Of a stretch of 64,000 nucleotides of DNA, positions 2,863 through 64,000 are shown one piece after another. The notes under the pieces were generated by a model. That model was not told the origin of the DNA, did not search any database, and was given only the letters and a program-made list of their open reading frames with translations. Within the stretch, counting starts at the first letter, position 1. Each line of letters starts with the position of its first letter. Origin of the DNA: Eledone cirrhosa (taxonomy: Eukaryota); NCBI GenBank assembly GCA_964016885.1, contig OZ024741.1, forward strand, positions 55,118,001-55,182,000, in the 5' to 3' direction. Made by a program: the position numbers and the translations under genes.

Positions 2863-4172
2863 TATATTTAGTTTGATTTGTAATTATTTGGGAAACTAGC
2901 CGATAAATCTTTCGATTTCTTCTTTTTCTTTTTATTTTTATTTTAAACATTCTTCATGAAAAATTAAACTACCCTAAAAGTTGATGCTCCAAATATATCG
3001 AATAAACGTTACACTAGATAAACTTCTATATTAAATATAAGAACATATGTAGACCAAATGGGCATCCTAAACTTTTGAAATGATTTCTGCTAGACGCGAT
3101 TTGGTAAATAATTTTTAGCTTTATCTGTTTTCGACTCTGATGCTTATAATGAACTTGGCAATATATTGTCAATTAATTTTGAATGGTTGATCTTTGTGGT
3201 CGATTTGCGTGGCATATTATGTTTTTATTTTTATTATTTTAATATTTTTTTAATATTTTTAATATTTTCATTTTTAATATGTAATATTTTTTAGTTTTAT
3301 ATTTTATTTATTTGTTTATTATTATTATTATTATTATTTTTTGTTTTTGTTTCTGATATTTTTATTAATATATTGAAATCTGTTCTCTATTTCTGCTTGA
3401 TAGATAATCATGTAGAGTAAAGACAAGAATAGTATTGTTAAAATTAATATAGACTCTATATATATGTGTATATATACACATATATGTATACTTAAATTTT
3501 TATAGCACAATGAGAATGTTCTCCGTGTAAAATAGGGGTTTGCAGAGTTGATCACGTAAATTCACATCGATGTTTGTAGTTATCATATAAACATATGAAT
3601 TTTTAAAACTAGACATAAGATCATTACTTTTCACACATTATAGATACGTGTCTCATTCAGGAATACTGATATTTACATTATAATGCCTGGTTTTTATACG
3701 AACTAATATTTCTACATTAAAACATAGGGTTTTTAAATTCTGCCTCGCCTATGTCTGGTTACTTTTCATTTTTCTCTCTATATAACGGCTGGTTTCTTTC
3801 CTAACCACATATATCTCCCTTACATTAATACTAGAGCTAAATAAATAAATAAATAAATAAATGTATCATTGATACGTCGTTCAACTACCTACTTTTCTCT
3901 ATATATATCTATCTCTATCTATTTCCTCTCTCTATATATCTCTCTCTGTTTCTTTACATGAAGTTCTTCTCTTTATCTATCTTTCCATCTCTCTATTTTG
4001 TTGCATGCATTTCTTCTTTTTCTTCTTTTTCTTCGTTTTCTTTCTTTCTTTCCTTCCTTCTTTCTTTCTTTCTTTCTGTTTACAATTTTTCACTGCCAAA
4101 TCAACTTTTTCAAATACAAGTCGATGTTGAACGGTATGTCAAATCTATTTATCTATAAAACTGTCTATATTG

Positions 4173-4238
4173 TATTTTGTCTGAAGAAGGCATAACATAT
4201 TGTTAATATGATATCCCTGAAATATATATAATGAAATA
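4173..4238 (+). ncRNA. Minimal type-I hammerhead ribozyme (family A pseudo-LTR)
   Basis: Stem I TATTTTGT/ATGAAATA; core CTGAAGA (4181-4187); stem II AGG..CCT; GAAA (4219-4222); palindromic mini stem III T-ATAT-A, then UA. Predicted cleavage after 4230. Confidence 0.8.
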
Positions 4239-4365
4239 AATATGGTTTTATAAATATAGTTTCCATTTATTTAATATCGTAAATATACTCCAAATACTTG
4301 TTGAGTGCTTTTATATCAGTTATAAATATTTACTAGTTGTAACCCAACAATTTAAATATAACTTT

Positions 4366-5150
<785 letters not shown>

Positions 5151-5684: not shown

Positions 5685-5747
<63 letters not shown>

Positions 5748-5801
5748 TAAAAAAAATAATGAATAAAACAATGAAACAGTTCCTTATATTAAACAAAAAA
5801 G

Positions 5802-5955
5802 TTCATTATTTAACGATCGTTTCTAGGATATATATGTGTTAGAATTGGCATGCATATTCAACAGATCTATGTACAAAATTATACAAAATTATACAAACTA
5901 TCAAAATTAAATATACATACCAACACATATATATGCCGTCTTCAGAAATAATGAA
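5802..5955 (-). ncRNA. Hammerhead ribozyme (inverted copy, family B)
   Basis: Reverse complement of 14143-14296. Confidence 0.65.
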
Positions 5956-6556
5956 ATATATTTATTGATAATAACAACAATTCAAAATTACAGGTCTGTT
6001 TGGGAACAGAGTTCAAATTGACCAATGAAAACACAAAAAGTTTATACAGTTAGGTGTATGTATATATGTAAGTAACTTCGGGCACAGATATGCATAAAAA
6101 CATATGTTCACATGCATACGCATGCCGAAAAGATGTATGTAAATACAAAAATTCAGGGCTAATGTCTCTGTATGTTTATAATCTACAGATAAAATACGTA
6201 TACGCATATAAACACATAAATATAAAAATAAATATATACACATTCATATACTCACACATATACATACATTCACACACACACGCGCGTATACGCATAAACA
6301 TACACACAACCACGAACATACATACACACACACACCCCCACACACATATATGTGTATATACTATTATCATAAGCATATGGACATTAATGCGCGCACATAA
6401 ACACTGCCACACATATTTAGATCCAGATACAGAAAGTAGGTGGGGGGGAAGAGGTCAGTATTTACCGGTGTCAGCAAACTGCCTATTTATAAATGTATCT
6501 ATAAATTTAGAAATAAAAAGAAAAAAGAAAAATATTAAGAAAACATATATATATAC

Positions 6557-6646
<90 letters not shown>

Positions 6647-6686
6647 AAGTAAAATATAAAATATACATCGATATACATACATATAC

Positions 6687-6719
<33 letters not shown>

Positions 6720-6924
6720 CACATACATACATATGCATACACATATACATAAACACATACATACACATACATATACATACACACACCATATAAATACATA
6801 TACACATACACACACGCATACATATAGAGACACATACATATACATATATAAATACATAGACATATACATATATACACACATATATATATACACATACACA
6901 CATAGATATATATATACATTCACA

Positions 6925-6977
<53 letters not shown>

Positions 6978-7050
6978 TATATACACATATATCTATACAC
7001 ATATATAAACACACTCATGTATATACACACATACACATACATACCCACAC

Positions 7051-7084
<34 letters not shown>

Positions 7085-7154
7085 ATACACACATATACAC
7101 ATACACACATACAAAGATATATATATATATATACACACACACACATATAATATA

Positions 7155-7191
<37 letters not shown>

Positions 7192-7650
7192 TATATACAT
7201 ATATATACACATATATATATATATATATATACACATACATACACATACATACTCATACATAGATATACATATATACACACACACACATACACACATACAT
7301 ATACGCATATATACACATACATACACATCCATGTATGCGTATACACATATAAACACAACCACACGCTCACATAACTCAGACATACATAAATAAAGGGATA
7401 TACATACACATATATACATATATAAATAGAGATACATATACACATATAAATATATACACACATACACACACACACATATACATACACACACATACACACA
7501 TACATATATATACACACACATACATATACATATATATATATATATATATACATATATATATAAAAATAAAGAAATAAAAGAAATAAATAAATAAATTAAT
7601 TAATACACACAGTCAGACAAATATGCACACACATACATATACACACATAT

Positions 7651-7681
<31 letters not shown>

Positions 7682-7725
7682 CATACATATACATACATAT
7701 ATATATACACATACACACATCAACT

Positions 7726-7763
<38 letters not shown>

Positions 7764-7935
7764 AAAGTTATATTTAAATTGTTGGGTTACAACTAGTAAA
7801 TATTTATAACTGATATAAATGCACTCAACAAGTATTTGGAGTATATTTACGATACTAAATAAATGGAAACTACATCTACAAAACCATATCTATCTCATCA
7901 TACATACCTCAGGGACATCACACTAACAATATGTT

Positions 7936-10296
7936 ATGCCCTCCTCAGACAAAATACTGCCAAATCAACTTTTCAAATACAAGTCGATGTTGAACGGTAT
8001 GTCAAATCTATTTATTTATAAAACTGTCTATATTGTATTTTGTCTGAAGAAGGCACAACACTCTTTGCTTGAAGACTTTGAGAAAGACCTTTTTAATTTA
8101 ATTAAACACCTCAAATTTAAGAAGTATAAATCTGTCTTTCAAAAGGACCTTGATTCTACCCTATTTGACCTAAAAAAGTCTAAAAAAATCCATGTCCACT
8201 CGGACAAAACTCGTAACTTGTATCACATGGATATTGAAGATTATAATGAGTTCATATATAAAGAACTCAGGAAAAATTATAAAAAATCTAATAATGCGTC
8301 ACTCACCAACATCAACAACAAAACACACAACATAGTAAAAAAACTAAACATTGAAGATAGAACTGAACCTTTGGCATTGAAAAGACCACACTTCAACCTG
8401 AAGGATCATAAATCAAACTTTAACTCAAATCCTTCTATAAGACTTATATGTCCCTCCAAATCTGATATTGGAATAATTAGCAAAAAAATTTTGGATAGAG
8501 TCATCCCACAAATAAGAAAACACGTTAATTTACCACTCTGGGAAAACACTTCCCAGGTAATTAACTGGTTTAAAAATATTAGATGTAAATCTTCTGCTTC
8601 ATTTCTACAATTTGATATAGATAATTACTATTCTTCTATATCACCTATACTCCTGAACAAAGCATTGATATTTGCTAAAAATAGATCTAACTTAACTTTG
8701 GATGACATTAATATTATTACACATGCTAGACTAACACTTATTGAATTTCAGAATGAATACTGGACCAGAAACACATATAATTATCTATTTGATATTACTA
8801 TGGGTTCAAGCGATTCCGCCCAAATTACTGATCTTGTGGGCCTCTTTCTCCTTTTCAACATAAATGCCTCCTTTCCCCACCTTAAAGGTGGTTTATATCG
8901 TGATGACTGTCTTCTTCTTTCCAACAACCTTAGCCTTTCAGAAATAGAAAAAAACAAAAAGCATATTAGAACTTTCCTTAAAGACTATTATAGTCTTCAT
9001 ATTACTTTTGAAAAAACAAGTAAAGTAGTAAATTTCCTAGATATAACTTTAGACTTAGCTACGGGTATCTACCAACCTTACCATAAACCCAACCAAAACT
9101 TACACTACATACACTCACAATCTAATCACCCTAAATCTATCCTTAAAAACCTTGCATATAATATATCACTTAGAATTTCTAACCTTTCTTCTAACCAAGA
9201 TGTATTTGATAAAAATGCGACCTTCTATAACGAAGCTCTAGATAGAAGTGGCCACAAAAATAGATTAGAGTATATACCTTCTACTAAAAATACTATAAAC
9301 ATACAACCTAATATTACCAACAAACACCAAATGAAAAGTACACACCTAAATGCCACCCACATTATACCCCAAAATACCAACAACTCTTCTAATATAAAGT
9401 ATAGTAACTCTCAAAAAACTACTCATCATACAACTCTAATAAATGTTAATAATAAAACCCCTAATAAACAAGATAAAACACCTAAATCTATAAATCTAAC
9501 TAAAAATGTGCGTGGTGAGATCATTAACATTAATCCTCCTAGTAAACATCACGATACAACCTATAAAAATAATAAACAACATAGAAACCGTAATAGACGA
9601 GTTACTTGGTATAATGCTCCATTTAATTTACAAATTAAGGATAATATTGCTAAAAAAATTTTTTGTATCCTAGAGAAAAACTTCCCGCCAAACCACAAAT
9701 ACCATCAAATCTTAAATAGGTCTACAGTTAAATTCTCATACTCAACAACCAATAACATAAAACAAAATATAAGTGCCTATAATGCATATAAATGTAAGAA
9801 TACCATAAGTATACCACCAATACATCAAACTAACCATAATATCTCCTCAAATACAGAATTAACGAAAGGTTGTAACTGTAGAAACAAAGCAAACTGCCCA
9901 TTAAAAGGAAATTGTCTTGTTAACAACATAGTTTATAAATGTAATGTTAAAACTAAAGATTCTATTTGCTCATATATAGGAGCTACTTCTAACAATTTTA
10001 AGGTAAGGTTTAATACCCACAAACATAGTTTTAAAAATGCCGCACTGGCTAATACAACATCTCTAGCAGAAAAAATCAATAGTTATAAAAATAAGAATAT
10101 AGAATATGATATGACCTGGAGTGTGCTCAAAAGAGCCACCCCTTATCAAAATAATAGAAATGAATGTAGATTATGTTCCCAAGAACTATTTGAAATAATG
10201 AAATCTAAGGATATCCTATTAAATAAACGACAGGAATTAATTATATCGTGTAATCATAAACTAAGAAAAACATTTAAATATTATAAACCTAATTAA
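7936..10296 (+). CDS. PLE reverse transcriptase plus C-terminal GIY-YIG endonuclease; genuine coding sequence starts ~8062 (5'-truncated)
   Basis: Motifs SDKTRNLY, LKDHK..PSIRLICP, QFDIDNYYSSI, TMGS, LYRDD, FLDITL, YHKP; linker CNCx5Cx5C; IVY..YIG, RFNTH, CRLC..E, LLNKR..CNH. No stop in 786 codons. The first ~42 codons derive from the inverted repeat. Confidence 0.93.
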   Translation: MPSSDKILPNQLFKYKSMLNGMSNLFIYKTVYIVFCLKKAQHSLLEDFEKDLFNLIKHLKFKKYKSVFQKDLDSTLFDLKKSKKIHVHSDKTRNLYHMDIEDYNEFIYKELRKNYKKSNNASLTNINNKTHNIVKKLNIEDRTEPLALKRPHFNLKDHKSNFNSNPSIRLICPSKSDIGIISKKILDRVIPQIRKHVNLPLWENTSQVINWFKNIRCKSSASFLQFDIDNYYSSISPILLNKALIFAKNRSNLTLDDINIITHARLTLIEFQNEYWTRNTYNYLFDITMGSSDSAQITDLVGLFLLFNINASFPHLKGGLYRDDCLLLSNNLSLSEIEKNKKHIRTFLKDYYSLHITFEKTSKVVNFLDITLDLATGIYQPYHKPNQNLHYIHSQSNHPKSILKNLAYNISLRISNLSSNQDVFDKNATFYNEALDRSGHKNRLEYIPSTKNTINIQPNITNKHQMKSTHLNATHIIPQNTNNSSNIKYSNSQKTTHHTTLINVNNKTPNKQDKTPKSINLTKNVRGEIININPPSKHHDTTYKNNKQHRNRNRRVTWYNAPFNLQIKDNIAKKIFCILEKNFPPNHKYHQILNRSTVKFSYSTTNNIKQNISAYNAYKCKNTISIPPIHQTNHNISSNTELTKGCNCRNKANCPLKGNCLVNNIVYKCNVKTKDSICSYIGATSNNFKVRFNTHKHSFKNAALANTTSLAEKINSYKNKNIEYDMTWSVLKRATPYQNNRNECRLCSQELFEIMKSKDILLNKRQELIISCNHKLRKTFKYYKPN

Positions 10297-10779
10297 TAAC
10301 ATTATTTTAGAAATTAATATATAATTTAATTTAAATGTTAGTTAACCTATAAATTTAATTTAATTAAAATTCTACTACAGATGAGATTATAAAATATTGT
10401 GTAATCATAAATTGTGAAAAACTTTTAAATATTACTAATATATACTTCGTAAATTAATTTATAGATTAATTTTAATTTATTTAACCTTTTATTAAAATTC
10501 CTTTACAGATTAAATATAACAAAATATCGTGTATTCAATGACAGAGAAATATTTTTTAATATTATAGACCTAATTATTGTACATTTTAGAAATATATTTA
10601 TAATTTGGTTTTAATTTGGTTAACCTAAAAATTTAATTTAATTGGCTTAAAATTAAAATCCTAATACAGATGGATTGCAGAGTGTCATGTAATCATAGAC
10701 TGAGATAGGTTTTGGATATATACCTAGTTAATATATTCTTTGCAATTTTTGAAAAAATATGTATATATGTATGTATATG

Positions 10780-11717: not shown

Positions 11718-11768
<51 letters not shown>

Positions 11769-11769
<1 letters not shown>

Positions 11770-12149
11770 GATATTGAATGAATGGAGGCTGTATTTGTAG
11801 GGCCATGTTTGTTTCATTATATATGTTTCAGGGATGTCATATTGACGATGTGTTGTGCCTTCTTCAGATAAAATACAATATAGACAGTTTTATAAATAAA
11901 TAGATTTGACATACCGTTCAACATCGACTTGTATTTGAAAAGTTGATTTGGCAGTATTTTGTCTGAGGAGGGCATAACATATTGTTAGTGTGATGTCCCT
12001 GAGGTATGTATGATGAGATAGATATGGTTTTGTAGATGTAGTTTCCATTTATTTAGTATCGTAAATATACTCCAAATACTTGTTGAGTGCTTTTATATCA
12101 GTTATAAATATTTACTAGTTGTAACCCAACAATTTAAATATAACTTTCC

Positions 12150-12150
<1 letters not shown>
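11769..12150 (+). mobile_element. Family-A pseudo-LTR mini-insertion (inverted + direct copy forming a hairpin), A-to-G hypermutated, nested in a (TA)n tract of the element B 3' UTR
   Basis: 11769-11954 matches 1696-1883 and 11955-12150 matches 4173-4368. The 32 A>G differences are confined to the paired arms. Confidence 0.9.
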
Positions 12151-12181
<31 letters not shown>

Positions 12182-12225
12182 AGTTGATGTGTGTATGTGT
12201 ATATATATATGTATGTATATGTACG

Positions 12226-12262
<37 letters not shown>

Positions 12263-12757
12263 ATATGTGTGTATATGTATGTGTGTGCATATTTGTCTGA
12301 CTGTGTGTATTAATTTATTTATTTATTTATTTATTTTATTTCTTTATTTTTATATATATATGTATATATATATATATATATATGTATATGTATGTGTGTG
12401 TATATATATGTATGTGTGTATGTGTGTGTATGTATATGTGTGTGTGTGTATGTGTGTATATATTTATATGTGTATATGTATCTCTATTTATATATGTATA
12501 TATGTGTATGTATATCCCTTTATTTATGTATGTCTGAGTTATGTGAGCGTGTGGTTGTGTTTATATGTGTATACGCATACATGGATGTGTATGTATGTGT
12601 ATATATGCGTATATGTATGTGTGTATGTGTGTGTGTGTATATATGTATATCTATGTATGAGTATGTATGTGTATGTATGTGTATATATATATATATGTGT
12701 ATATATATGTATATATATATGTATATATATATATATATATATATTTATTATATTATA

Positions 12758-12788
<31 letters not shown>

Positions 12789-12820
12789 CTTTGTATGTGT
12801 GTATGTGTATATGTGTGTAT

Positions 12821-12907
<87 letters not shown>

Positions 12908-12975
12908 GGTATGTATGTGTATGTGTGTATATACATGAGTGTGTTTATATATGTGTATAGATATATGTGTATATA

Positions 12976-13012
<37 letters not shown>

Positions 13013-13217
13013 TGTGAATGTATATATATATCTATGTGTGTATGTGTATATATATATGTGTGTATATATGTATATGTCTATGTATTTATATATGTATATG
13101 TATGTGTCTCTATATGTATGCGTGTGTGTATGTGTATATGTATTTATATGGTGTGTGTATGTATATGTATGTGTATGTATGTGTTTATGTATATGTGTAT
13201 GTATATGTATGTATGTG

Positions 13218-13252
<35 letters not shown>

Positions 13253-13292
13253 GTATATGTATGTATATCGATGTATATTTTATATTTTACTT

Positions 13293-13344
<52 letters not shown>

Positions 13345-13369
13345 GTATATATATATGTTTTCTTAATAT

Positions 13370-13582
13370 TTTTCTTTTTTCTTTTTTCTTTTTTCTTTTT
13401 TCTTTTTTCTTTTTTCTTTTTTCTTTTTTCTTTTTTCTTTTTTCTTTTTTCTTTTTTCTTTTTTCTTTTTTCTTTTTTCTTTTTTCTTTTTTCTTTTTTC
13501 TTTTTTCTTTTTTCTTTTTTCTTTTTTCTTTTTTCTTTTTTCTTTTTTCTTTTTTCTTTTTTCTTTTTTCTTTTTTCTTTTT
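13370..13582 (+). repeat. (CTTTTTT)n heptamer expansion
   Basis: About 30 perfect units. The mirror site in the left arm (~6515-6532) has about 2. Confidence 0.9.
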
Positions 13583-14142
13583 ATTTCTAAATTTATAGAT
13601 ACATTTATAAATAGGCAGTTTGCTGACACCGGTAAATACTGACCTCTCCCCCCCCCCCACCTACTTTCTGTATCTGGATCTAAATATGTGTGGCAGTGTT
13701 TATGTGCGCGCATTAATGTCCATATGCTTATGATAATAGTATATACACATATATGTGTGTGGGGGTGTGTGTGTGTATGTATGTTCGTGGTTGTGTGTAT
13801 GTTTATGCGTATACGCGCGTGTGTGTGTGAATGTATGTATATGTGTGAGTATATGAATGTGTATATATTTATTTTTATATTTATGTGTTTATATGCGTAT
13901 ACGTATTTTATCTGTAGATTATAAACATAGAGACATTAGCCCTGAATTTTTGTATTTACATACATCTTTTCGGCATGCGTATGCATGTGAACATATATTT
14001 TTATGCATATCTGTGAACGAAGTTACTTACATATATACATACACCTAACTGTATAAACTTTTTGTGTTTTCATTGGTCAATTTGAACTCTGTTCCCAAAC
14101 AGACCTGTAATTTTGAATTGTTGTTATGATCAATAAATATAT

Positions 14143-14296
14143 TTCATTATTTCTGAAGACGACATATATATGTGTTGGTATGTATATTTAATTTTGATAG
14201 TTTGTATAATTTTGTATAATTTTGTACATAGATCTGTTGAATATGCATGCCAATTCTAACACATATATATCCTAGAAACGATCGTTAAATAATGAA
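14143..14296 (+). ncRNA. Type-I hammerhead ribozyme with long stem II (family B pseudo-LTR)
   Basis: Perfect 10-bp stem I TTCATTATTT/AAATAATGAA; CTGAAGA 14153-14159; stem II ATATATATGTGTTGG/CTAACACATATATAT with imperfect closing pairs; GAAA 14275-14278; palindromic ACGATCGT, GUU triplet. Confidence 0.7.
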
Positions 14297-14490
14297 CTTT
14301 TTTTGTTTAATATAAGGAACTGTTTCATTGTTTTATTCATTATTTTTTTAATATTTTATCTTGACTCTGTATTCCGTTTATCTTTCACCGAAAGTGATTT
14401 TTCATTGCATCTCTTCTTTCCATGATATCCGGATTACATTGAGTTCTTCATACGGATTGGACACTACCGTAAACTCTTGGTAGATTTATC

Positions 14491-14547
<57 letters not shown>

Positions 14548-15947: not shown

Positions 15948-17632
15948 TTAAGTTATTTTATAGTGAGAGAATTTAGTCTTCAGTTTGTGGTTGCAGTATA
16001 ATGATCGTTCGATTCTATCATTTAGTAATTTATTTTTGGATTTTAAGATGTAAAAGAGTTCAAGGTTACATAACCTACAGTACTTCAATCCATTCCGATA
16101 TGCACTAGCGCTGGAAAGTATATCCCATTTCAAGGTGAACTGTTGGTTCCGTTCACGGAGTTGCCAGGTCTTGTTGGCGATCGTGGTCACAAAACGGTGA
16201 TTAGGATGTTTAATTGAGAATCGATGACGATACCAGCGAGATTTAAAGGAGGTAGTGGTAGACCCGATATAATACCATTTCTGGTCGTTCGATTCAACAG
16301 TGCATTGGTAAACAATGTTCGACTTTAGGCATTTATTCTTCAATGGACATCTTTCTGGTAGGTGGCAGTTACAGTTTTTGTTGTGGTAGCGGGTATACAT
16401 ACCATGGATAGGTTGGGATAGCATTACAGGTGGGTTCTGTAATACCCGTCTCCCGTTTAGTGGTTGGGAGGCCGATATTACGTTATGCTCATCTGTTATT
16501 AAAATATTTTGTTTTGTAGTGTTGTTTAATTGCTTTAAGTTAAGTTTTTTTATGTATGCTTCAAGGTTTGGTGCCGTGGAGTATGATAGTTTAATAGTTT
16601 TAGAGTTCAGAATTTTACTGTATTTATGGGAACTAGGGAAATGCTTGTTGATTAACTTAAAAAATGAAAGAGATAGTTTTGTACTAATCGAAGCATTAAA
16701 AATGGGGTTATACCAGATATACTTTCTACAACGTAATTTATTTGGTGATGATTTTCTATTATTAGTACCTTTGGTGGTACTGCGTGTGTGCGCTTGTATT
16801 TCAGTACCCCGGTTACGTATACTTTGATTCCGTGTAGAGCTATGTGTGTTATGGAGATTCTTATCAATGTATTCTATTGTATTCCGGTGGTCGTCATTCC
16901 TTAATGCATTATTATAGTATTCAGCATGTTCACTGAAAATCTCAGAGTCAGACGATAGACGAGAGATTCTAAGAGAAATACTATGGGGAACCGATTTGAT
17001 CATGAAAAGTGGGTGGTTTGAGTTAAAATTGATATAGGTAAGGTTCTCATTTATCTTGTGGAAGGGTCGTATCAGTCCGGTATTTAAATTAAGAGTTACG
17101 TCTAGAAAATTTACTACTTTAAGATTGTATTCGTACGTTATTTTTAGACCCAGTTCGCTAAAAGATTTTCTAACGTTTTTCCGTAGCCTTTCAAGATTTT
17201 GGTTATTTAAGTTATTAACTAATAAGAGCCCGTCATCTCTATATATTCCCCCCTGTAGGTTACTAAATTTACCATGTAGTATGTGGGCTATGTAAATTCC
17301 CACAAGATCGGTGACCTCCGCTGAGTCGTTGGAACCCATGGTGATGTCGAAGTTTGTGGGTCTGTCCTTACGTTCCCAGTAGCAGTTATCAAACTTGATA
17401 ATAGTTTTTCTAGCCTCTATAATAATATTAATGTCGTCCTCCGTTAGGTCGGAATTGACTTTAGCAAACGATAGGGCCCTACGTAAAGTGCCGGGTGAGA
17501 TTGAAGAGTAGTATTCGTCTATGTCAAGTTGTATAAATTTAGATTTATTCTTGTTCTTAACGTTATTAAACTAGCGAATTGCTTCGCTAGTGTTGCCCCA
17601 TAATTTAATTTCTATTTTCTTTTTCAATTGAG

Positions 17633-17633: not shown

Positions 17634-17712
<79 letters not shown>

Positions 17713-17848
17713 CAAGTAAGTACGTTTTGAAACAGTGAGCAAGTTTGAAATTAGAAAATAGAATAGCTTTCACCGTATTTTTGACTAAAGAAATTTTAGC
17801 CTGTTAATGGGGTTTAGAACCCTCAGATAAATGGAAAAAGATGAGTAT

Positions 17849-17919
17849 TGACGTACATGGGAGTCGAACCCACATCTTTGGTTATCCAGACCACTGTGCT
17901 ACCATTACACCAACACATC
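17849..17919 (-). ncRNA. tRNA-like sequence (mirror copy)
   Basis: Exact reverse complement of 17925-17995. Confidence 0.7.
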
Positions 17920-17924
17920 ACCCT

Positions 17925-17995
17925 GATGTGTTGGTGTAATGGTAGCACAGTGGTCTGGATAACCAAAGATGTGGGTTCGACTCCCATGTACGTCA
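17925..17995 (+). ncRNA. tRNA-like sequence (SINE head or tRNA pseudogene)
   Basis: Cloverleaf GATGTGT-TG-GTGT-AATGGTA-GCAC-A-GTGGT-CTGGATA-ACCAA-AGAT-GTGGG-TTCGACT-CCCAT-GTACGTC-A, with A box TGGTGTAATGG, B box GGTTCGACTCC and T5 ~10 nt downstream. Non-canonical: T37, GGA anticodon without a Ser long variable arm, and a Gln-like D arm. Confidence 0.7.
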
Positions 17996-18077
17996 ATACT
18001 CATCTTTTTCCATTTATCTGAGGGTTCTAAACCCCATTAACAGGCTAAAATTTCTTTAGTCAAAAATACGGTGAAAG

Positions 18078-18249
<172 letters not shown>

Positions 18250-54419: not shown

Positions 54420-55725
54420 ACAAATCATTTAACTTATGATTCCTGGAATGTTAGAACATTCCAGGATAGCAGCTCAAATCTGGAGTGAAGATCAGCCTTC
54501 ATCTGCAATGCACTCAACAGATATAACATTGACATCTGTGCCATAAGTGAAACCCGACACCCTGGCATCTCCTAAATGGAAGAAGTGGGAGAAAGGTGCA
54601 CAGTCTTCTGGTCCGGAAGAAGTAGGAGAAAGGTGCACAGTCTTCTGGTCCGGAAGAAGTGGGAGAAAGGTGCACAGTCTTCTGGTCCGGAAGAAGTAGG
54701 AGAAAGGTGCACAGTCTTCTGGCCCGGAAGAAGTAGGAGAAAGGTGCACAGTCTTCTGGCCCTGAAGAATAGGAGAAAGGTGCACAGTCTTCTGGCCCGG
54801 AAGAAGTAGGAGAAAGGTGCACAGTCTTCTGGCCCGGAAGAAGTAGGAGAAAGGTGCACAGTCTTCTGGCCCGGAAGAAGTAGGAGAAAGGTGCACAGTC
54901 TTCTGGCCCGGAAGAAGTAGGAGAAAGGTGCACAGTCTTCTGGCCCGGAAGAAGTAGGAGAAAGGTGCACAGTCTTCTGGCCCGGAAGAAGTAGGAGAAA
55001 GGTGCACAGTCTTCTGGTCCGGAAAAAGGAGGAGAAAGGTGCACAGTCTTCTGGCCCGGAAGAAGTAGGAGAAAGGTGCACAGTCTTCTGGCCCGGAAGA
55101 AGTAGGAGAAAGGTGCACAGTCTTCTGGTCCGGAAAAAGGAGGAGAAAGGTGCACAGTCTTCTGGCCCGGAAGAAGTAGGAGAAAGGTGCACAGTCTTCT
55201 GGCCCGGAAGAAGTAGGAGAAAGGTGCACAGTCTTCTGGCCCGGAAGAAGTAGGAGAAAGGTGCACAGTCTTCTGGTCCGGAAAAAGGAGGAGAAAGGTG
55301 CACAGTCTTCTGGCCCGGAAGAAGTAGGAGAAAGGTGCACAGTCTTCTGGCCCGGAAGAAGTAGGAGAAAGGTGCACAGTCTTCTGGCCCGGAAGATGTA
55401 GGAGAAAGGTGCACAGTCTTCTGGCCCGGAAGAAGTAGGAGAAAGGTGCACAGTCTTCTGGTCCGGAAAAAGGAGGAGAAAGGTGCACAGTCTTCTGGTC
55501 CGGAAGAAGTAGGAGAAAGGTGCACAGTCTTCTGGTCCGGAATAAGTAGGAGAAAGGTGCACAGTCTTCTGGCCCGGAAGAAGTAGAAGAAAGGTGCACA
55601 GTCTTCTGGCCCGGAAGAAGTAGGAGAAAGGTGCACAGTCTTCTGGTCCGGAAAAAGGAGGAGAAAGGTGCACAGTCTTCTGGCCCGGAAGATGTAAAGA
55701 AAACCGCCGTCAGTATAGGGTTGAA
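54420..55725 (+). pseudogene. RTE-clade LINE APE endonuclease N-terminus, decayed and interrupted by a minisatellite
   Basis: My translation: LTYDSWNVRTFQD..E*RSAFICNALNRYNIDICAISETR....*MEEVGERCTVFWSGR. This matches the RTE pattern WNVRT / RYNIDI.ALSETR / EEVG.GYTFFWSG. ~53770-54420 may be its 5' UTR. Confidence 0.8.
54578..55692 (+). repeat. 37-bp minisatellite, ~30 copies
   Basis: Unit GGAAGAAGTAGGAGAAAGGTGCACAGTCTTCTGGCCC, a few recurring variants, one 1-bp deletion, no spacers. Confidence 0.97.
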
Positions 55726-55789
55726 GGAAAGAAGTGAGTAGATAGGCTAATAACGGGGATTTCTAGTAAATGAGTAAGGCGATAAACGA

Positions 55790-58700
55790 TGAACAATAAA
55801 CCATAACAATAAAAACAATTCTACCAACCAAAAACAATAGCAATAACTAACAATAACAACAATAACAACTATCAATAACTAACAATAACAACAGTAACAA
55901 CTATCAATAACAAACAATAACAACAGTAACAACTATCAATAACTAATAATAACAACAGTAACAACTATCAATAACTAACAATAACAACAGTAACAACTAT
56001 CAATAACTAACTATAACAACAGTAACAACTATCAATAACTAACAATAACAACAGTAACAACTATCAATAACTAACAATAACAACAGTAACAACTATCAAT
56101 AACAAACAATAACAACAGTAACAACTATCAATAACTAATAATAACAACAGTAACAACTATCAATAACTAACAATAACAACAGTAACAACTATCAATAACT
56201 AACAATAACAACAGTAACAACTATCAATAACAAACAATAACAACAGTAACAACTATCAATAACTAATAATAACAACAGTAACAACTATCAATAACTAACA
56301 ATAACAACAGTAACAACTATCAATAACTAACAATAACAACAGTAACAACTATCAATAACAAACAATAACAACAGTAACAACTATCAATAACTAATAATAA
56401 CAACAGTAACAACTATCAATAACTAACAATAACAACAGTAACAACTATCAATAACTAACAATAACAACAGTAACAACTATCAATAACAAACAATAACAAC
56501 AGTAACAACTATCAATAACTAATAATAACAACAGTAACAACTATCAATAACTAACAATAACAACAGTAACAACTATCAATAACTAACAATAACAACAGTA
56601 ACATCTATCAATAACTAACAATAACAACAGTAACAACTATCAATAACTAACTATAACAACAGTAACAACTATCAATAACTAACAATAACAACAGTAACAA
56701 CTATCAATAACTAACAATAACAACAGAAACAACTATCAATAACAAACAATAACAACAGTAACAACTATCAATAACTAACAATAACAACAGTAACAACTAT
56801 CAATAACTAACAATAACAACAGTAACAACTATCAATAACAAACAATAACAACAGAAACAACTATCAATAACAAACAATAACGACAGTAACAACTATCAAT
56901 AATAAACAATAACAACAGTAACAACTATCAATAACGAACAATAACAACAGTAACAACTATCAATAACAAACAATAACAACAGTAACAACTATCGATAACA
57001 AACAATAACAACAGAAAAAACTATCAATAACAAACAATAACAACAATAACAAATAACAATAACAAACAATAACAACAGTAACAACTATCAATAACAAACA
57101 ATAACAACAGTAACAACTATCAATAATAAACAATAACAACAGTAACAACTATCAATAACGAACAATAACAACAGTAACAACTATCAATAACAAACAATAA
57201 CAACAATAACAACTATTAATAACTAACAATAACAACAGTAACAACTATCAATAACAAACAATAACAACAGTAACAACTATCAATAACAAACAATAACAAC
57301 AGTAACAACTATCAATAACAACAATAACAACAGTAACAACTAAGAATAACAAACAATAACAACAGTAACAAATATCAATAACAAACAATAACAACAGTAA
57401 CAACTATCAATAACAAACAATAACAGCAGTAACAACTATCAATAATAAACAATAACAACAGTAACAACTATCAATAACAACAATAACAACAGTAACAACT
57501 AAGAATAACAAACAATAACAACAGTAACAAATATCAATAACAAACAATAACAACAGTAACAACTATCAATAATAAACAATAACAACAGTAACAACTATCA
57601 ATAACGAACAATAACAACAGTAACAACTATCAATAACAAACAATAACAACAGTAACAACTATCAATAACAAAAATAACAACAGTAACAACTAACAATAAC
57701 TAACAATAACAACAGTAACAACTATCAATAACAAACAATAACAACAGTAACAACTATCAATAACAAACAATAACAACAGTAACAACTATCAATAACGACA
57801 ATAACAACAGTAACAACTAACAATAACAAACAATAACAACAGTAACAACTATCAATAACAAACAATAACAACAGTAACAACTATCAATAATAAACAATAA
57901 CAACAGTAACAACTATCAATAACGAACAATAACAACAGTAACAACTATCAATAACAAACAATAACAACAGAAACAACTATCAATAACAAACAATAACAAC
58001 AGTAACAACTATCAATAACAAACAATAACAACAGTAACAACTATCAATAACAAAAATAACAACAGTAACAACTATCAATAACAAACAATAACAACAGTAA
58101 CAACTATCAATAACAACAATAACAACAGTAACAACTATCAATAACAAACAATAACAACAGTAACAACTATCAATAACAAACAATAACAACAGTAACAACT
58201 ATCAATAACAAAAAATAACAACAGTAACAACTATCAATAACGACAATAACAACAGAAACAACTATCAATAACAAACAATAACAACAGTAACAACTATCAA
58301 TAACAACAATAACAACAGTAACAACTATCAATAACAAACAATAACAACAGTAACAAATATCAATAACTAACAATAATAAAAGTAACAACTATCAATAACA
58401 AACAATAACAACAGTAACAACTATCAATAACAAACAATAACAACAGTAACAACTATCAATAACAACAATAACAACAGTAACAACTATCAATAACAAACAA
58501 TAACAACAGTAACAAATATCAATAACTAACAATAATAAAAGTAACAACTATCAATAACAAACAATAACAACAGTAACAACTATCAATAACAAAAATAACA
58601 ACAGTAACAACTATCAATAACAACAATAACAACAGTAACAACTAAGAATAACAAACAATAACAACAGTAACAACTATCAATAACAAACAATAACAACAGA

Positions 58701-61700
58701 AAAAACTATCAATAACAAACAATAACAACAGTAACAACTATCAATAATAAACAATAACAACAGTAACAACTATCAATAACAAACAATAACAACAGTAACA
58801 TCTATCAATAACTAACAATAACAACAGTAACAACTATCAATAATAAACAATAACAACAGTAACAACTATCAATAACAAACAATAACAACAGTAACATCTA
58901 TCAATAACTAACAATAACAACAGTAACAACTATCAATAACAAACAATAACAACAGTAACATCTATCAATAACTAACAATAACAACAGTAACAACTATCAA
59001 TAACTAACAATAATAAAAGTAACAACTATCAATAACAAACAATAACAACAGTAACAACTATCAATAAGTAACAATAACAACAGTAACAAATATCAATAAC
59101 TAACAATAATAAAAGTAACAACTATCAATAACAAACAATAACAACAGAAACAAATATCAATAACAAACAATAACAACAGTAACAACTATCAATAACAAAC
59201 AATAACAACAGTAACAACTATCAATAACAAACAATAACAACAGAAACAACTATCAATAACAAACAATAACAACAGTAACAACTATCAATAACTAACAATA
59301 ACAACAGTAACAACTATCAATAACAAACAATAACAACAGTGACAACTATCAATAACAAACAATAACAACAGTAACAACTATCAATAACTAACAATAACAA
59401 CAGTAACAACTATCAATAACAAACAATAACAACAGAAACAACTATCAATAACAAACAATAACAACAGTAACAACTATCAATAACAAACAATAACAACAGT
59501 GACAACTATAAATAACTAACAATAACAACAGTAACAACTATCAATAACAAACAATAACAACAGAAACAACTATCAATAACAAACAATAACAACAGTAACA
59601 ACTATCAATAACAAACAATAACAACACTAAAAAATATCAATAACAAACAATAACAACAGTAACAACTATCAATAACAAACAATAACAACACTAACAAATA
59701 TCAATAACAAACAATAACAACAGTAACAAATATCAATAACAAACAATAACAACAGTAACAACTATCAATAACAAACAATAACAACAGTAACAAATATCAA
59801 TAACAATCGATAACAACAGTAACAACTATCAATAACAAACAATAACAACAGAAACAACTATCAATAACAAACAATAACAACAGTAACAACTATCAATAAC
59901 AAACAATAACAACAGAAACAACTATCAATAACAAACAATAACAACAGTAACAACTATCAATAACAAACAATAACAACAGAAACAACTATCAATAACAAAC
60001 AATAACAACAGAAACAACTATCAATAACAAACAATAACATCTATCAATAACAAACAATAACAACAGTAACAACTATCAATAACAAACAATAACAACAGAA
60101 ACAACAATCAATAACAAACAATAACAACAGTAACAACTAACAATAACAAACAATAACAACAGTAACAACTATCAATAACAAACAATAACAACAGTAACAA
60201 CTATCAATAACAAACAATAACAACAGTAACAACTATCAATAACAAACAATAACAACAGTAACAACTATCAATAACAAACAATAACAACAGTAACAACTAA
60301 CAATAACAAACAATAACAACAGTAACAACTATCAATAACAAACAATAACAACAGTAACAACTATCAATAACAAACAATAACAACAGTAACAACTATCAAT
60401 AACAAACAATAACAACAGTAACAACTATCAATAACAAACAATAACAACAGTAACAACTATCAATAACAAACAATAACAACAGTAACAACTATCAATAACT
60501 AACAATAACAACAGTAACAACTATCAATAACTAACAATAACAACAGTAACATCTATCAATAACTAACAATAACAACAGTAACAACTATCAATAACAAACA
60601 ATAACGACAGTAACAACTATCAATAACAACAATAACAACAGTAACAACTATCAATAACTAACAATAACAACAGTAACAACTATCAATAACAAACAATAAC
60701 GACAGTAACAACTATCAATAACAACAATAACAACAGTAACAACTATCAATAACTAACAATAACAACAGTAACATCTATCAATAACTAACAATAACAACAG
60801 TAACAACTATCAATAACAAACAATAACAACAGTAACAACTATCAATAACTAACAATAACAACAGTAACAACTATCAATAACTAACAATAACAACAGTAAC
60901 AACTATCAATAACAAACAATAACAACAGAAACAACTATCAATAACAAACAATAACGACAGTAACAACTATCAATAATAAACAATAACAACAGTAACAACT
61001 ATCAATAACGAACAATAACAACAGTAACAACTATCAATAACAAACAATAACAACAGTAACAACTATCGATAACAAACAATAACAACAGAAAAAACTATCA
61101 ATAACAAACAATAACAACAATAACAAATAACAATAACAAACAATAACAACAGTAACAACTATCAATAACAAACAATAACAACAGTAACAACTATCAATAA
61201 TAAACAATAACAACAGTAACAACTATCAATAACGAACAATAACAACAGTAACAACTATCAATAACAAACAATAACAACAATAACAACTATTAATAACTAA
61301 CAATAACAACAGTACAACTATCAATAACAAACAATAACAACAGTAACAACTATCAATAACAAACAATAACAACAGTAACAACTATCAATAACAACAATAA
61401 CAACAGTAACAACTAAGAATAACAAACAATAACAACAGTAACAAATATCAATAACAAACAATAACAACAGTAACAACTATCAATAACAAACAATAACAGC
61501 AGTAACAACTATCAATAATAAACAATAACAACAGTAACAACTATCAATAACAACAATAACAACAGTAACAACTAAGAATAATAAACAATAACAACAGTAA
61601 CAAATATCAATAACAAACAATAACAACAGTAACAACTATCAATAATAAACAATAACAACAGTAACAACTATCAATAACGAACAATAACAACAGTAACAAC

Positions 61701-64000
61701 TATCAATAACAAACAATAACAACAGTAACAACTATCAATAACAAAAATAACAACAGTAACAACTAACAATAACTAACAATAACAACAGTAACAACTATCA
61801 ATAACAAACAATAACAACAGTAACAACTATCAATAACAAACAATAACAACAGTAACAACTATCAATAACGACAATAACAACAGTAACAACTAACAATAAC
61901 AAACAATAACAACAGTAACAACTATCAATAACAAACAATAACAACAGTAACAACTATCAATAATAAACAATAACAACAGTAACAACTATCAATAACGAAC
62001 AATAACAACAGTAACAACTATCAATAACAAACAATAACAACAGAAACAACTATCAATAACAAACAATAACAACAGTAACAACTATCAATAACAAACAATA
62101 ACAACAGTAACAACTATCAATAACAAAAATAACAACAGTAACAACTATCAATAACAAACAATAACAACAGTAACAACTATCAATAACAACAATAACAACA
62201 GTAACAACTATCAATAACAAACAATAACAACAGTAACAACTATCAATAACAAACAATAACAACAGTAACAACTATCAATAACAAACAATAACAACAGTAA
62301 CAACTATCAATAACGACAATAACAACAGAAACAACTATCAATAACAAACAATAACAACAGTAACAACTATCAATAACAACAATAACAACAGTAACAACTA
62401 TCAATAACAAACAATAACAACAGTAACAAATATCAATAACTAACAATAATAAAAGTAACAACTATCAATAACAAACAATAACAACAGTAACAACTATCAA
62501 TAACAAACAATAACAACAGTAACAACTATCAATAACAACAATAACAACAGTAACAACTATCAATAACAAACAATAACAACAGTAACAAATATCAATAACT
62601 AACAATAATAAAAGTAACAACTATCAATAACAAACAATAACAACAGTAACAACTATCAATAACAAAAATAACAACAGTAACAACTATCAATAACAACAAT
62701 AACAACAGTAACAACTAAGAATAACAAACAATAACAACAGTAACAACTATCAATAACAAACAATAACAACAGAAAAAACTATCAATAACAAACAATAACA
62801 ACAGTAACAACTATCAATAATAAACAATAACAACAGTAACAACTATCAATAACAAACAATAACAACAGTAACATCTATCAATAACTAACAATAACAACAG
62901 TAACAACTATCAATAATAAACAATAACAACAGTAACAACTATCAATAACAAACAATAACAACAGTAACATCTATCAATAACTAACAATAACAACAGTAAC
63001 AACTATCAATAACAAACAATAACAACAGTAACATCTATCAATAACTAACAATAACAACAGTAACAACTATCAATAACTAACAATAATAAAAGTAACAACT
63101 ATCAATAACAAACAATAACAACAGTAACAACTATCAATAAGTAACAATAACAACAGTAACAAATATCAATAACTAACAATAATAAAAGTAACAACTATCA
63201 ATAACAAACAATAACAACAGAAACAACTATCAATAACAAACAATAACAACAGTAACAACTATCAATAACAAACAATAACAACAGTAACAACTATCAATAA
63301 CAAACAATAACAACAGAAACAACTATCAATAACAAACAATAACAACAGTAACAACTATCAATAACAAACAATAACAACAGTAACAACTATCAATAACAAA
63401 CAATAACAACAGTGACAACTATCAATAACTAACAATAACAACAGTAACAACTATCAATAACAAACAATAACAACAGAAACAACTATCAATAACAAACAAT
63501 AACAACAGTAACAACTATCAATAACAAACAATAACAACAGAAACAACTATCAATAACAAACAATAACAACAGAAACAACTATCAATAACAAACAATAACA
63601 ACTATCAATAACAAACAATAACAACAGTAACAACTATCAATAACAAACAATAACAACAGAAACAACAATCAATAACAAACAATAACAACAGTAACAACTA
63701 ACAATAACAAACAATAACAACAGTAACAACTATCAAAAACAAACAATAACAACAGTAACAACTATCAATAACAAACAATAACAACAGTAACAACTATCAA
63801 TAACAAACAATAACAACAGTAACAACTATCAATAACAAACAATAACAACAGTAACAACTATCAATAACAAACAATAACAACAGTAACAACTAACAATAAC
63901 AAACAATAACAACAGTAACAACTATCAATAACAAACAATAACAACAGTAACAACTATCAATAACAAACAATAACAACAGTAACAACTATCAATAACAAAC
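55790..64000 (+). repeat. 32-bp satellite array (>8 kb, runs off window end) with ~4.07-kb higher-order duplication
   Basis: Unit AACAATAACAACAGTAACAACTATCAATAAC(T/A). The same rare variants recur at offset 4073-4074 (ORF-track pairs 56960/61034, 57980/62053, 58170/62243). Confidence 0.95.

Follow-up and report, generated by a model that had tools for sequence, protein, structure and literature searches.

Duplex-confined A-to-G changes in a Penelope-like element lineage of Eledone cirrhosa point to heritable, accumulating RNA editing with loss of a hammerhead core as a by-product

The window analysed here, a stretch of 64,000 nucleotides of the 3.0 Gb genome of Eledone cirrhosa (assembly GCA_964016885.1, contig OZ024741.1, positions 55,118,001 to 55,182,000 of the forward strand), is rich in (TA)n tracts and Penelope-like elements (PLEs). 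One of these, element B, carries in its 3′ UTR a fold-back insert derived from a second element family, family A (Table 1). The two (TA)n tracts that border the insert correspond to an empty (TA)n site in B copies that lack it, and in the sense RNA of B the fold-back is predicted to form a duplex of about 110 bp. Element B is itself inserted together with an inverted upstream half, in which the altered hammerhead motif is repeated with the same changes (core from 7948, minus strand). An inverted-plus-direct layout of this kind is the usual form of PLE insertions according to the accessible text of PMC8557442.

Table 1. Coordinates of element B, the family-A fold-back and related features, counted from the first nucleotide of the window
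Feature	Position	Strand	Description
Unedited family-A hammerhead, reference	4173..4238	+	Belongs to another family-A insertion (sense part 3250-4369, inverted half about 1694-2723)
Inverted upstream half of the same B insertion	5739..8061	-	Copy of about 11850-14359
Element B ORF, 5′-truncated	8062..10296	+	Reverse transcriptase and C-terminal GIY-YIG-type endonuclease
(TA)n target tract, 5′ of insert	11727..11766	.
Fold-back insert, family A	11767-12151		385 nt; flanked by (TA)n tracts within the B 3′ UTR
Inverted (antisense) arm	11767..11955	-	Family-A positions 4281 to 4092
Part of antisense arm pairing with sense arm	11767-11876		17 A>G on the + strand; the rest of the arm is unedited loop
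Sense arm	11954..12151	+	Family-A positions 4172-4369
Edited family-A hammerhead motif	11955..12020	+	CTGAGGA 11963-11969, GAGG 12001-12004, H17 = G at 12012
(TA)n target tract, 3′ of insert	12152..12177	.
B's own hammerhead-like motif	14143..14296	+	10-bp stem I, CTGAAGA 14153-14159, long stem II, GAAAC
B 3′ end and tail	14297..14494	+	Downstream of B's own hammerhead; ends in (TA)n

Pfam assigned no family to the B frame. Its translation nevertheless contains DKT in place of DKG, a CxCx5C linker, and CxxC and CxH motifs around the E and N of the endonuclease; DKT, CNCRNKANC and CRLC were located by pattern and CxH by eye, with the Hydra definition taken from PMC8557442. The insertion habits of B are also of the Hydra type, namely a (TA)n target, an inverted 5′ half, a tail on one end and a hammerhead near the 3′ end. 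By these motifs and habits, which the accessible text of Craig et al. (2021; PMC8557442) describes for the Hydra clade together with a C-terminal endonuclease, element B is regarded as a Hydra-clade-like Penelope element. It differs from that clade in its 3′ UTR of about 4 kb, which is full of microsatellites and collects elements, and in exceeding the usual length of <3 kb. A further difference is that the N-terminal RWK motif was seen in none of four long B frames, whose N-termini may be truncated or lie outside the fetched stretch. Membership in Naiad was ruled out by the presence of the C-terminal endonuclease and of the hammerhead. Copies L158 and L162 of the lineage described below have open frames of 780 and 783 residues containing both domains.

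The hammerhead-like motif that belongs to B has a palindromic GATC loop and atypical stem II junctions, is unedited, and has its core about 210 nt before the 3′ end of the element. All 34 lineage arms that extend over this core have it intact, and in 18 of them the 3′ tail is present too; its CTGAAGA box is visible in 40 of 60 other B copies. In the window, the inverted half of B abuts the direct half so as to create a chimeric frame (7927-10296, plus strand, 789 residues), whose opening 45 codons (in-frame ATG at 7936) derive from the family-A loop sequence of the inverted half and are fused to the truncated reverse transcriptase of B (junction region 7927-8061). A 5′ half-hammerhead, with CTGAAGA at 8044 and without GAAA, lies at this junction.

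The microsatellite-rich 3′ UTR of B, surveyed at loci L191-L250, collects other (TA)n-targeting elements. The inserts include pieces of family A (L223, L226 and L250) and perfect fold-backs of other families (L196 and L203), and one element recurs with the same end base in L217, L225, L233, L234 and L245 and also follows an edited hairpin in L255. Most de novo inserts in B are single.

The unedited family-A motif consists of the CTGAAGA box (4181-4187), GAAA (4219-4222) and a cleavage nucleotide at 4230 within an AUA triplet, arranged around an 8-bp stem I (extendable to about 15 bp), stem II, and a 2-bp helix III whose loop is the palindrome ATAT. Rfam returned no hammerhead family at E up to 1 for the window or up to 10 for 4100-4320, and the motif is called a hammerhead by its core and stems. 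Among 27 distinct family-A variants without G at H17, CTGANGA is kept in 25, GAAA in 24 and UH in all 27, and position 7 takes any base (A 10, G 10, C 4, T 3). A free position 7 within a held CTGANGA/GAAA core is how a conserved hammerhead behaves, and self-cleavage is a predicted activity of this family. Stems I and II form in the minimum-energy fold and mostly pair across the variants, a comparison in which part of stem II was fixed by the search pattern; the changes are one-sided only, with no two-sided stem covariation across the 27 variants.

In hammerhead ribozymes A14, A15.1 and H17 are required, and G at position 17 blocks cleavage. All three are G in the copy carried by B (12003, 12004 and 12012), which reads CTGAGGA, GAGG, TATGTA and TG, just as a first-pass annotation of this DNA had described; its placing of the motif downstream of the B frame (end at 10296) and before the hammerhead (14143-14296) and 3′ end (about 14494) of B itself was likewise confirmed. 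The same 66-nt stretch contains further A>G changes at 11967 (N7, a free position), 11970, 11988, 11990, 11995, 12008 and 12017. The changes at A14, A15.1 and H17 belong to the near-fixed founder set defined below, and those at 11970 and 12017 are later.

Compared with the unedited family-A copy in the window, 32 of the 34 substitutions in the fold-back are A>G on one and the same strand, the sense strand of B, and they occur in both arms. The sense arm has 15 differences, all A>G and all between 11967 and 12056, with none in the unpaired tail beyond. The antisense arm, leaving aside four mismatches at its (TA)n border (11758-11766), has lost 1 nt and shows 17 A>G changes besides a single C>T and a single G>A. 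Every one of the 32 A>G changes lies inside the predicted duplex (11767-11876 and 11954-12063), and the loop and tail have none. Since both arms were changed on the same strand, the editing would postdate the hairpin and would have acted on an RNA running through it. With 100% identity in 40 of 40 scored hits and 9,974 places in the genome that match the core motif, family A is young and large. G at A15.1 occurs in only 52 of these places, 38 in the edited lineage; the 14 others were examined except for six single-change matches. Given a young family and the rarity of G at A15.1, the pattern lies far beyond chance. The first-pass annotation had taken the changes for A-to-I-type edits made on a B transcript and fixed by retrotransposition, a reading that the one-strand, duplex-confined A>G pattern supports. 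The founder edits avoid adenosines preceded by G (0 of 9 such sites, P = 0.017), the ADAR context described in the accessible text of PMC2873906, whereas later edits do not (8 of 16 G-preceded against 10 of 21 T-preceded sites). The edited form was also found, letter for letter over 80 nt (11928-12007), in contigs of one public DNA sample, which may be the assembly's own. The sequencing runs listed as containing the sequence include no RNA run, and the two that were compared were contigs of that one DNA sample.

The edited arm was found at 44 places by pattern, or 45 with one added, and 44 arms were recovered at 36 loci on many contigs. The 45 places are a lower bound, as there are further 5′-truncated members (L190:407-556 and G000:C9:27134922); one place (L170) gave no arm, and a second copy in L179, a separate unedited insertion, was dropped before counting. 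Locus L190 also contains a later, unedited family-A fold-back in the same region. Across the 44 arms, the 87 adenosines of the duplex fall into 28 sites that are G in >=90% of arms, 27 that vary and 32 that are never G, a distribution that identifies the arms as descendants of one founder with 28 edits. The core is intact in none of the 44: H17 is G in all of them, and A14 and A15.1 in 43 each. Of 261 B places, the first 100 were compared by coordinate with those of the lineage, and 14 coincide. Among the B loci compared we found no unedited copy with the hairpin insert, and without such a progenitor the first editing could have occurred in another transcript.

After the founder, A>G changes continued to collect in the duplex: of the 53 A sites still left there 26 were hit, compared with 41 out of 613 in the flanks (p = 1e-14). 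T>C changes in the duplex stayed at background level, at 6 of 84 T sites (p = 3e-8 against duplex A>G). Edit distance tracks the distance in flanking SNPs (Mantel rho 0.63 over 33 insertion events, exceeded in 0 of 2,000 permutations; 11 arms, comprising eight second halves and three truncated arms, were dropped), and SNPs as distant as 2.5 kb in the flanks segregate together with the extra edits. On the flank tree, 10 of the 13 variable sites that copies share can be explained with fewer steps than in all, or nearly all, shuffled versions, a count for which the tree took in both halves of the same insertions and non-A hairpin columns; the fit of the other three (11848, 12017 and 12056) is no better than that of shuffles. 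In one clade the edits are nested, 11807 and 11977 being followed by 11773, then by five more (L163, L175 and L187) and then by 11786. Insertion events total 27 to 38 edits each, and we take the nesting to reflect a minimum of three to four rounds following the founder. Flank and edit haplotypes are mixed in some copies (e.g. L158), through recombination or recurrence, and the count of rounds is blurred accordingly. In the clade of L166, L167, L173, L180, L186 and L188, about 50 nt of the 3′ UTR (window equivalent 10461-10511) have been replaced, apparently by conversion from a neighbouring related repeat.

The two halves of single B insertions agree in all 166 comparisons at variable edit sites (35 with G in both), made in the window (5739-8061 against 11850-14359) and in L152, L163, L166, L167, L172/L173 and L185. 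Few edits are private to one insertion, and descent from a shared source element therefore explains most of this agreement.

Unedited family-A fold-backs of the same geometry are common, being present at 26 of the 30 loci fetched, two of them with the same junction as the insert. One of the two, L107, was considered as the donor of the insert and rejected, for it has about eight private differences, one of them common to both its arms; L125 has the same junction, which shows that the junction recurs. At L121-L150 the junctions cluster beside stem I of the hammerhead, with the inverted arm ending at 4092-4112 and the direct arm starting at about 4150-4190, a clustering that is partly due to the choice of these loci for their likeness to L107.

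Degenerate patterns led to nine loci outside the lineage, 100 of the 150 places matching the second pattern having been examined. Five of the nine are hyper-edited, each with a pattern of its own. The arm mismatches are of the A>G type in 34 of 36 cases in L254 and in 46 of 47 in L255, which is single among 40 scored hits. In L259, an older copy, 34 A>G-type arm mismatches stand among many others, and in the antisense arm of L258 18 of 28 differences are A>G; L258 and L259 share a motif by convergence, and their insertions are unrelated, so that they were rejected as one lineage. In L256 (G000:C28:99482900-99485200), the two halves are complementary to each other and share 15 A>G changes on the sense strand, one of them the G at A15.1. 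They seem to be copies of a single edited template, and the insertion took place in spite of the broken core. By their separate patterns, these five are family-A copies edited independently of the lineage. Of the remaining loci, L253 has a few changes, and L251, L252 and L257 have a single G only; these three were considered as a second spreading edited lineage and dismissed, as they are of a sister subfamily and share just the one G at A15.1.

By computation, adopting the hammerhead in place of the duplex would cost two naturally occurring unedited fold-backs 90 kcal/mol (L107) and 97 kcal/mol (L125); the cost is 81 kcal/mol for the edited copy and 2.8 kcal/mol for the sense strand alone. In every tail-out fold-back the antisense arm is transcribed first. 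Because the duplex far outweighs the hammerhead and its antisense arm is made first, the RNA to be edited would already be folded and uncut. The notion, also raised in the first-pass annotation, that the hairpin alone could mask the ribozyme is thus in keeping with a computed difference of about 90 kcal/mol in favour of the duplex. Nor do the edits concentrate on the core. At a rate of 28 in 87, at least one of the six key adenosines would be edited with P = 0.91 and at least three with P = 0.29; three of the six were edited (P = 0.29 for both arms and 0.22 for the sense arm). Editing also continued after the death of the core, reaching A6 in ten arms and A13 in one.

Taken together, we consider it very probable that the lineage holds a heritable and cumulative record of ADAR activity, and that its hammerhead was lost as a by-product. 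The history would have begun when a B copy received, at a (TA)n tract in its 3′ UTR, a family-A element in the form of a short inverted-plus-direct fold-back. In the B transcript the fold-back would form a perfect duplex of about 110 bp, antisense arm first, burying the family-A hammerhead, and ADAR would hyper-edit about a third of the duplex adenosines (28 of 87). The reverse transcriptase of B would then read inosine as G, and the daughter copy would become a source element, whose descendants would be transcribed, lightly re-edited at the remaining adenosines and retrotransposed for at least three to four further rounds, so that edits are inherited and accumulate. Editing would be heavy in the first pass and light in later ones, presumably as a hairpin with G-U pairs is a less suitable substrate. 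Being located in the paired end of every such fold-back, the core would be lost along the way.

A different source of the changes, such as misincorporation by the reverse transcriptase, DNA-level deamination in a cruciform or an assembly artefact, appears most improbable. It would suit the later edits, which do not avoid a 5′ G, and ADAR is here named from DNA sequence; such a source is, however, at odds with changes that stop at the duplex ends, with A>G on the transcript strand in both arms, with T>C at background in the duplex and with recurrence at 36 loci on many contigs as well as in contigs of the public DNA run. Hardly more credible is a single burst of editing, after which RNAs or loci with different edits would have exchanged sequence by template switching or gene conversion and so acquired the nested extra Gs. 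Mosaic copies do exist, such as L158 and the clade with the replaced block at 10461-10511, and three sites are homoplastic, but shuffling cannot make new G alleles at 26 further sites. The 28-site core is common to all copies, whereas independent first-pass events differ in pattern, and the linkage of extra edits to SNPs as far as 2.5 kb into the flanks also speaks against one burst.

The first-pass annotation had proposed that an active internal family-A hammerhead would cut the B RNA and that editing of its core rescues mobilisation. In favour of such a switch are the dead core in 44 of 44 arms, the lack of an unedited B copy with the insert among the loci compared, and the resemblance of the motif to a real type I hammerhead, with position 7 taking all four bases and CTGANGA in 25 of 27 variants. 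The one unmasked sense insert of family A that was traced, L250 with an intact core, is moreover confined to its own locus, with no other end-to-end match among 40 scored hits; its two copies form a local tandem, and L250 was set aside as proof that unmasked hammerheads travel, neither refuting nor supporting a switch. Against a switch, the computed advantage of the duplex over the hammerhead is already about 90 kcal/mol in the unedited RNA, the core edits occur at chance level in one founder only, and most de novo inserts in B are single anyway. Copies of B and A also routinely span their own intact hammerheads, an argument that weakens if B replicates through cleaved and circularised RNA, as proposed in the accessible text of PMC4209133, for spanning would then be no proof of inactivity. 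For the element hammerhead reported there, cleavage of the monomer was undetectable and that of the multimer low, and motifs with a short helix III are expected to need a dimer; the family-A loop (ATAT) and the B loop (GATC) are not complementary, so that B RNA would offer no partner in cis. The annotation had asked whether copies with the insert are always edited at the core. All 44 arms are dead, but all lineage copies share the founder pattern, and 'always edited' comes down to one event. A switch or rescue is not supported by these models, with a ribozyme already buried when unedited, and we hold it to be very improbable; the broken ribozyme would be a by-product of editing. A less remote, though still doubtful, alternative is that the perfect 110-bp hairpin stalls reverse transcription or feeds RNA silencing, and that editing loosens or disguises it. 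This is compatible with a cumulative record and adds selection to it. The only fold-back seen spreading inside B, at about 14% of the listed B places, is indeed the edited one, and the unedited fold-backs inside B (L149, L196, L203 and L223) were not shared between any of the loci that were compared. However, edits read as G are computed to cost only about 10 kcal/mol, leaving the full duplex to form, and any transcribed perfect duplex gets edited, whether this helps or not. On a speculative extension, to which we give no more credence, ADAR would be a heritable and self-limiting mutator that licenses hairpin-bearing B RNA, with new edits in each round and with edits that barcode the origin of both halves from a single RNA.

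Editing of retroelement RNA as such has precedents, which are cited here from the accessible parts of the sources. In the avian retroviruses RAV-1 (Felder 1994) and avian leukosis virus (Hajjar and Linial 1995), both cited in PMC8586724, A-to-G hyperediting was linked to ADAR. The B lineage resembles them in its clustered A>G changes in a retroelement, ascribed to ADAR acting on RNA before reverse transcription, but it is a non-viral PLE in an animal genome assembly, its substrate is a captured hairpin, and its edits were added over several apparent rounds in a lineage of 36 loci. Deaminase footprints fixed in genomic retroelement copies are also known from APOBEC 'DNA editing' (PMC4866542; PMC2873906), where G>A footprints are common in vertebrate LTR elements and absent from invertebrate controls (PMC4866542). 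In that system sense-strand G>A arises on cDNA, as found in an LTR screen, whereas the B lineage has A>G, apparently made on RNA, limited to a duplex and cumulative. ADAR1 likewise meets a retrotransposon RNA in the case of LINE-1, yet the LINE-1 RNA there was not edited by ADAR1 and its restriction was independent of editing (PMC5224506), while the progeny of the B lineage record editing and kept moving. The family-A motif agrees with the metazoan PLE hammerheads of Cervera and De la Pena (2014; PMC4209133) in being of type I, in its short helix III and palindromic loop, in lying near the 3′ end of its element and in the expected need for a dimer. The copy in the B lineage differs from these in that another family brought it into B, a fold-back buries it and its core is edited; it is known from sequence. 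A preprint on retrozymes (10.64898/2026.07.22.740005) has, in its accessible part, no bearing on editing. In a literature search that mostly did not extend to subscription papers, we found no report of a retroelement lineage that accumulates edits over generations, or of ADAR footprints in PLE copies.

Normally RNA edits are not passed on. In this case a lineage of retroelements appears to have entered host A-to-I edits into the genome time after time while continuing to move. In an animal genome, ADAR would thereby mutate mobile DNA in a manner specific to strand and structure. The edits may be read as a fossil record of element RNA that met ADAR in the germ line, folded into a hairpin, before reverse transcription, and as a counter of retrotransposition generations and source elements. 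They may also provide a handle on the open question of how PLEs build inverted and tandem insertions, given the 166 of 166 agreement between halves and the 15 edits common to the halves of L256. Should editing indeed license the hairpin RNA, each round would write new edits into the germline and supply a natural barcode of the single RNA template. The loss of the ribozyme would be ordinary collateral damage.

Three further features of the window lie downstream of B. Just beyond the element, the minus strand of 15948-17570 contains a second Penelope-like frame of 540 residues with related motifs, to which Pfam assigned no family. A palindrome at 17634-18216, centred near 17922, contains two inverted tRNA-like matches (17849-17919 and 17925-17995; 49.7 bits) and is probably a fold-back of a tRNA-derived repeat. 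The end of the window (55689-64000) is occupied by a tandem array of more than 220 copies of a 32-nt unit, preceded by a related satellite at about 54492-55762.
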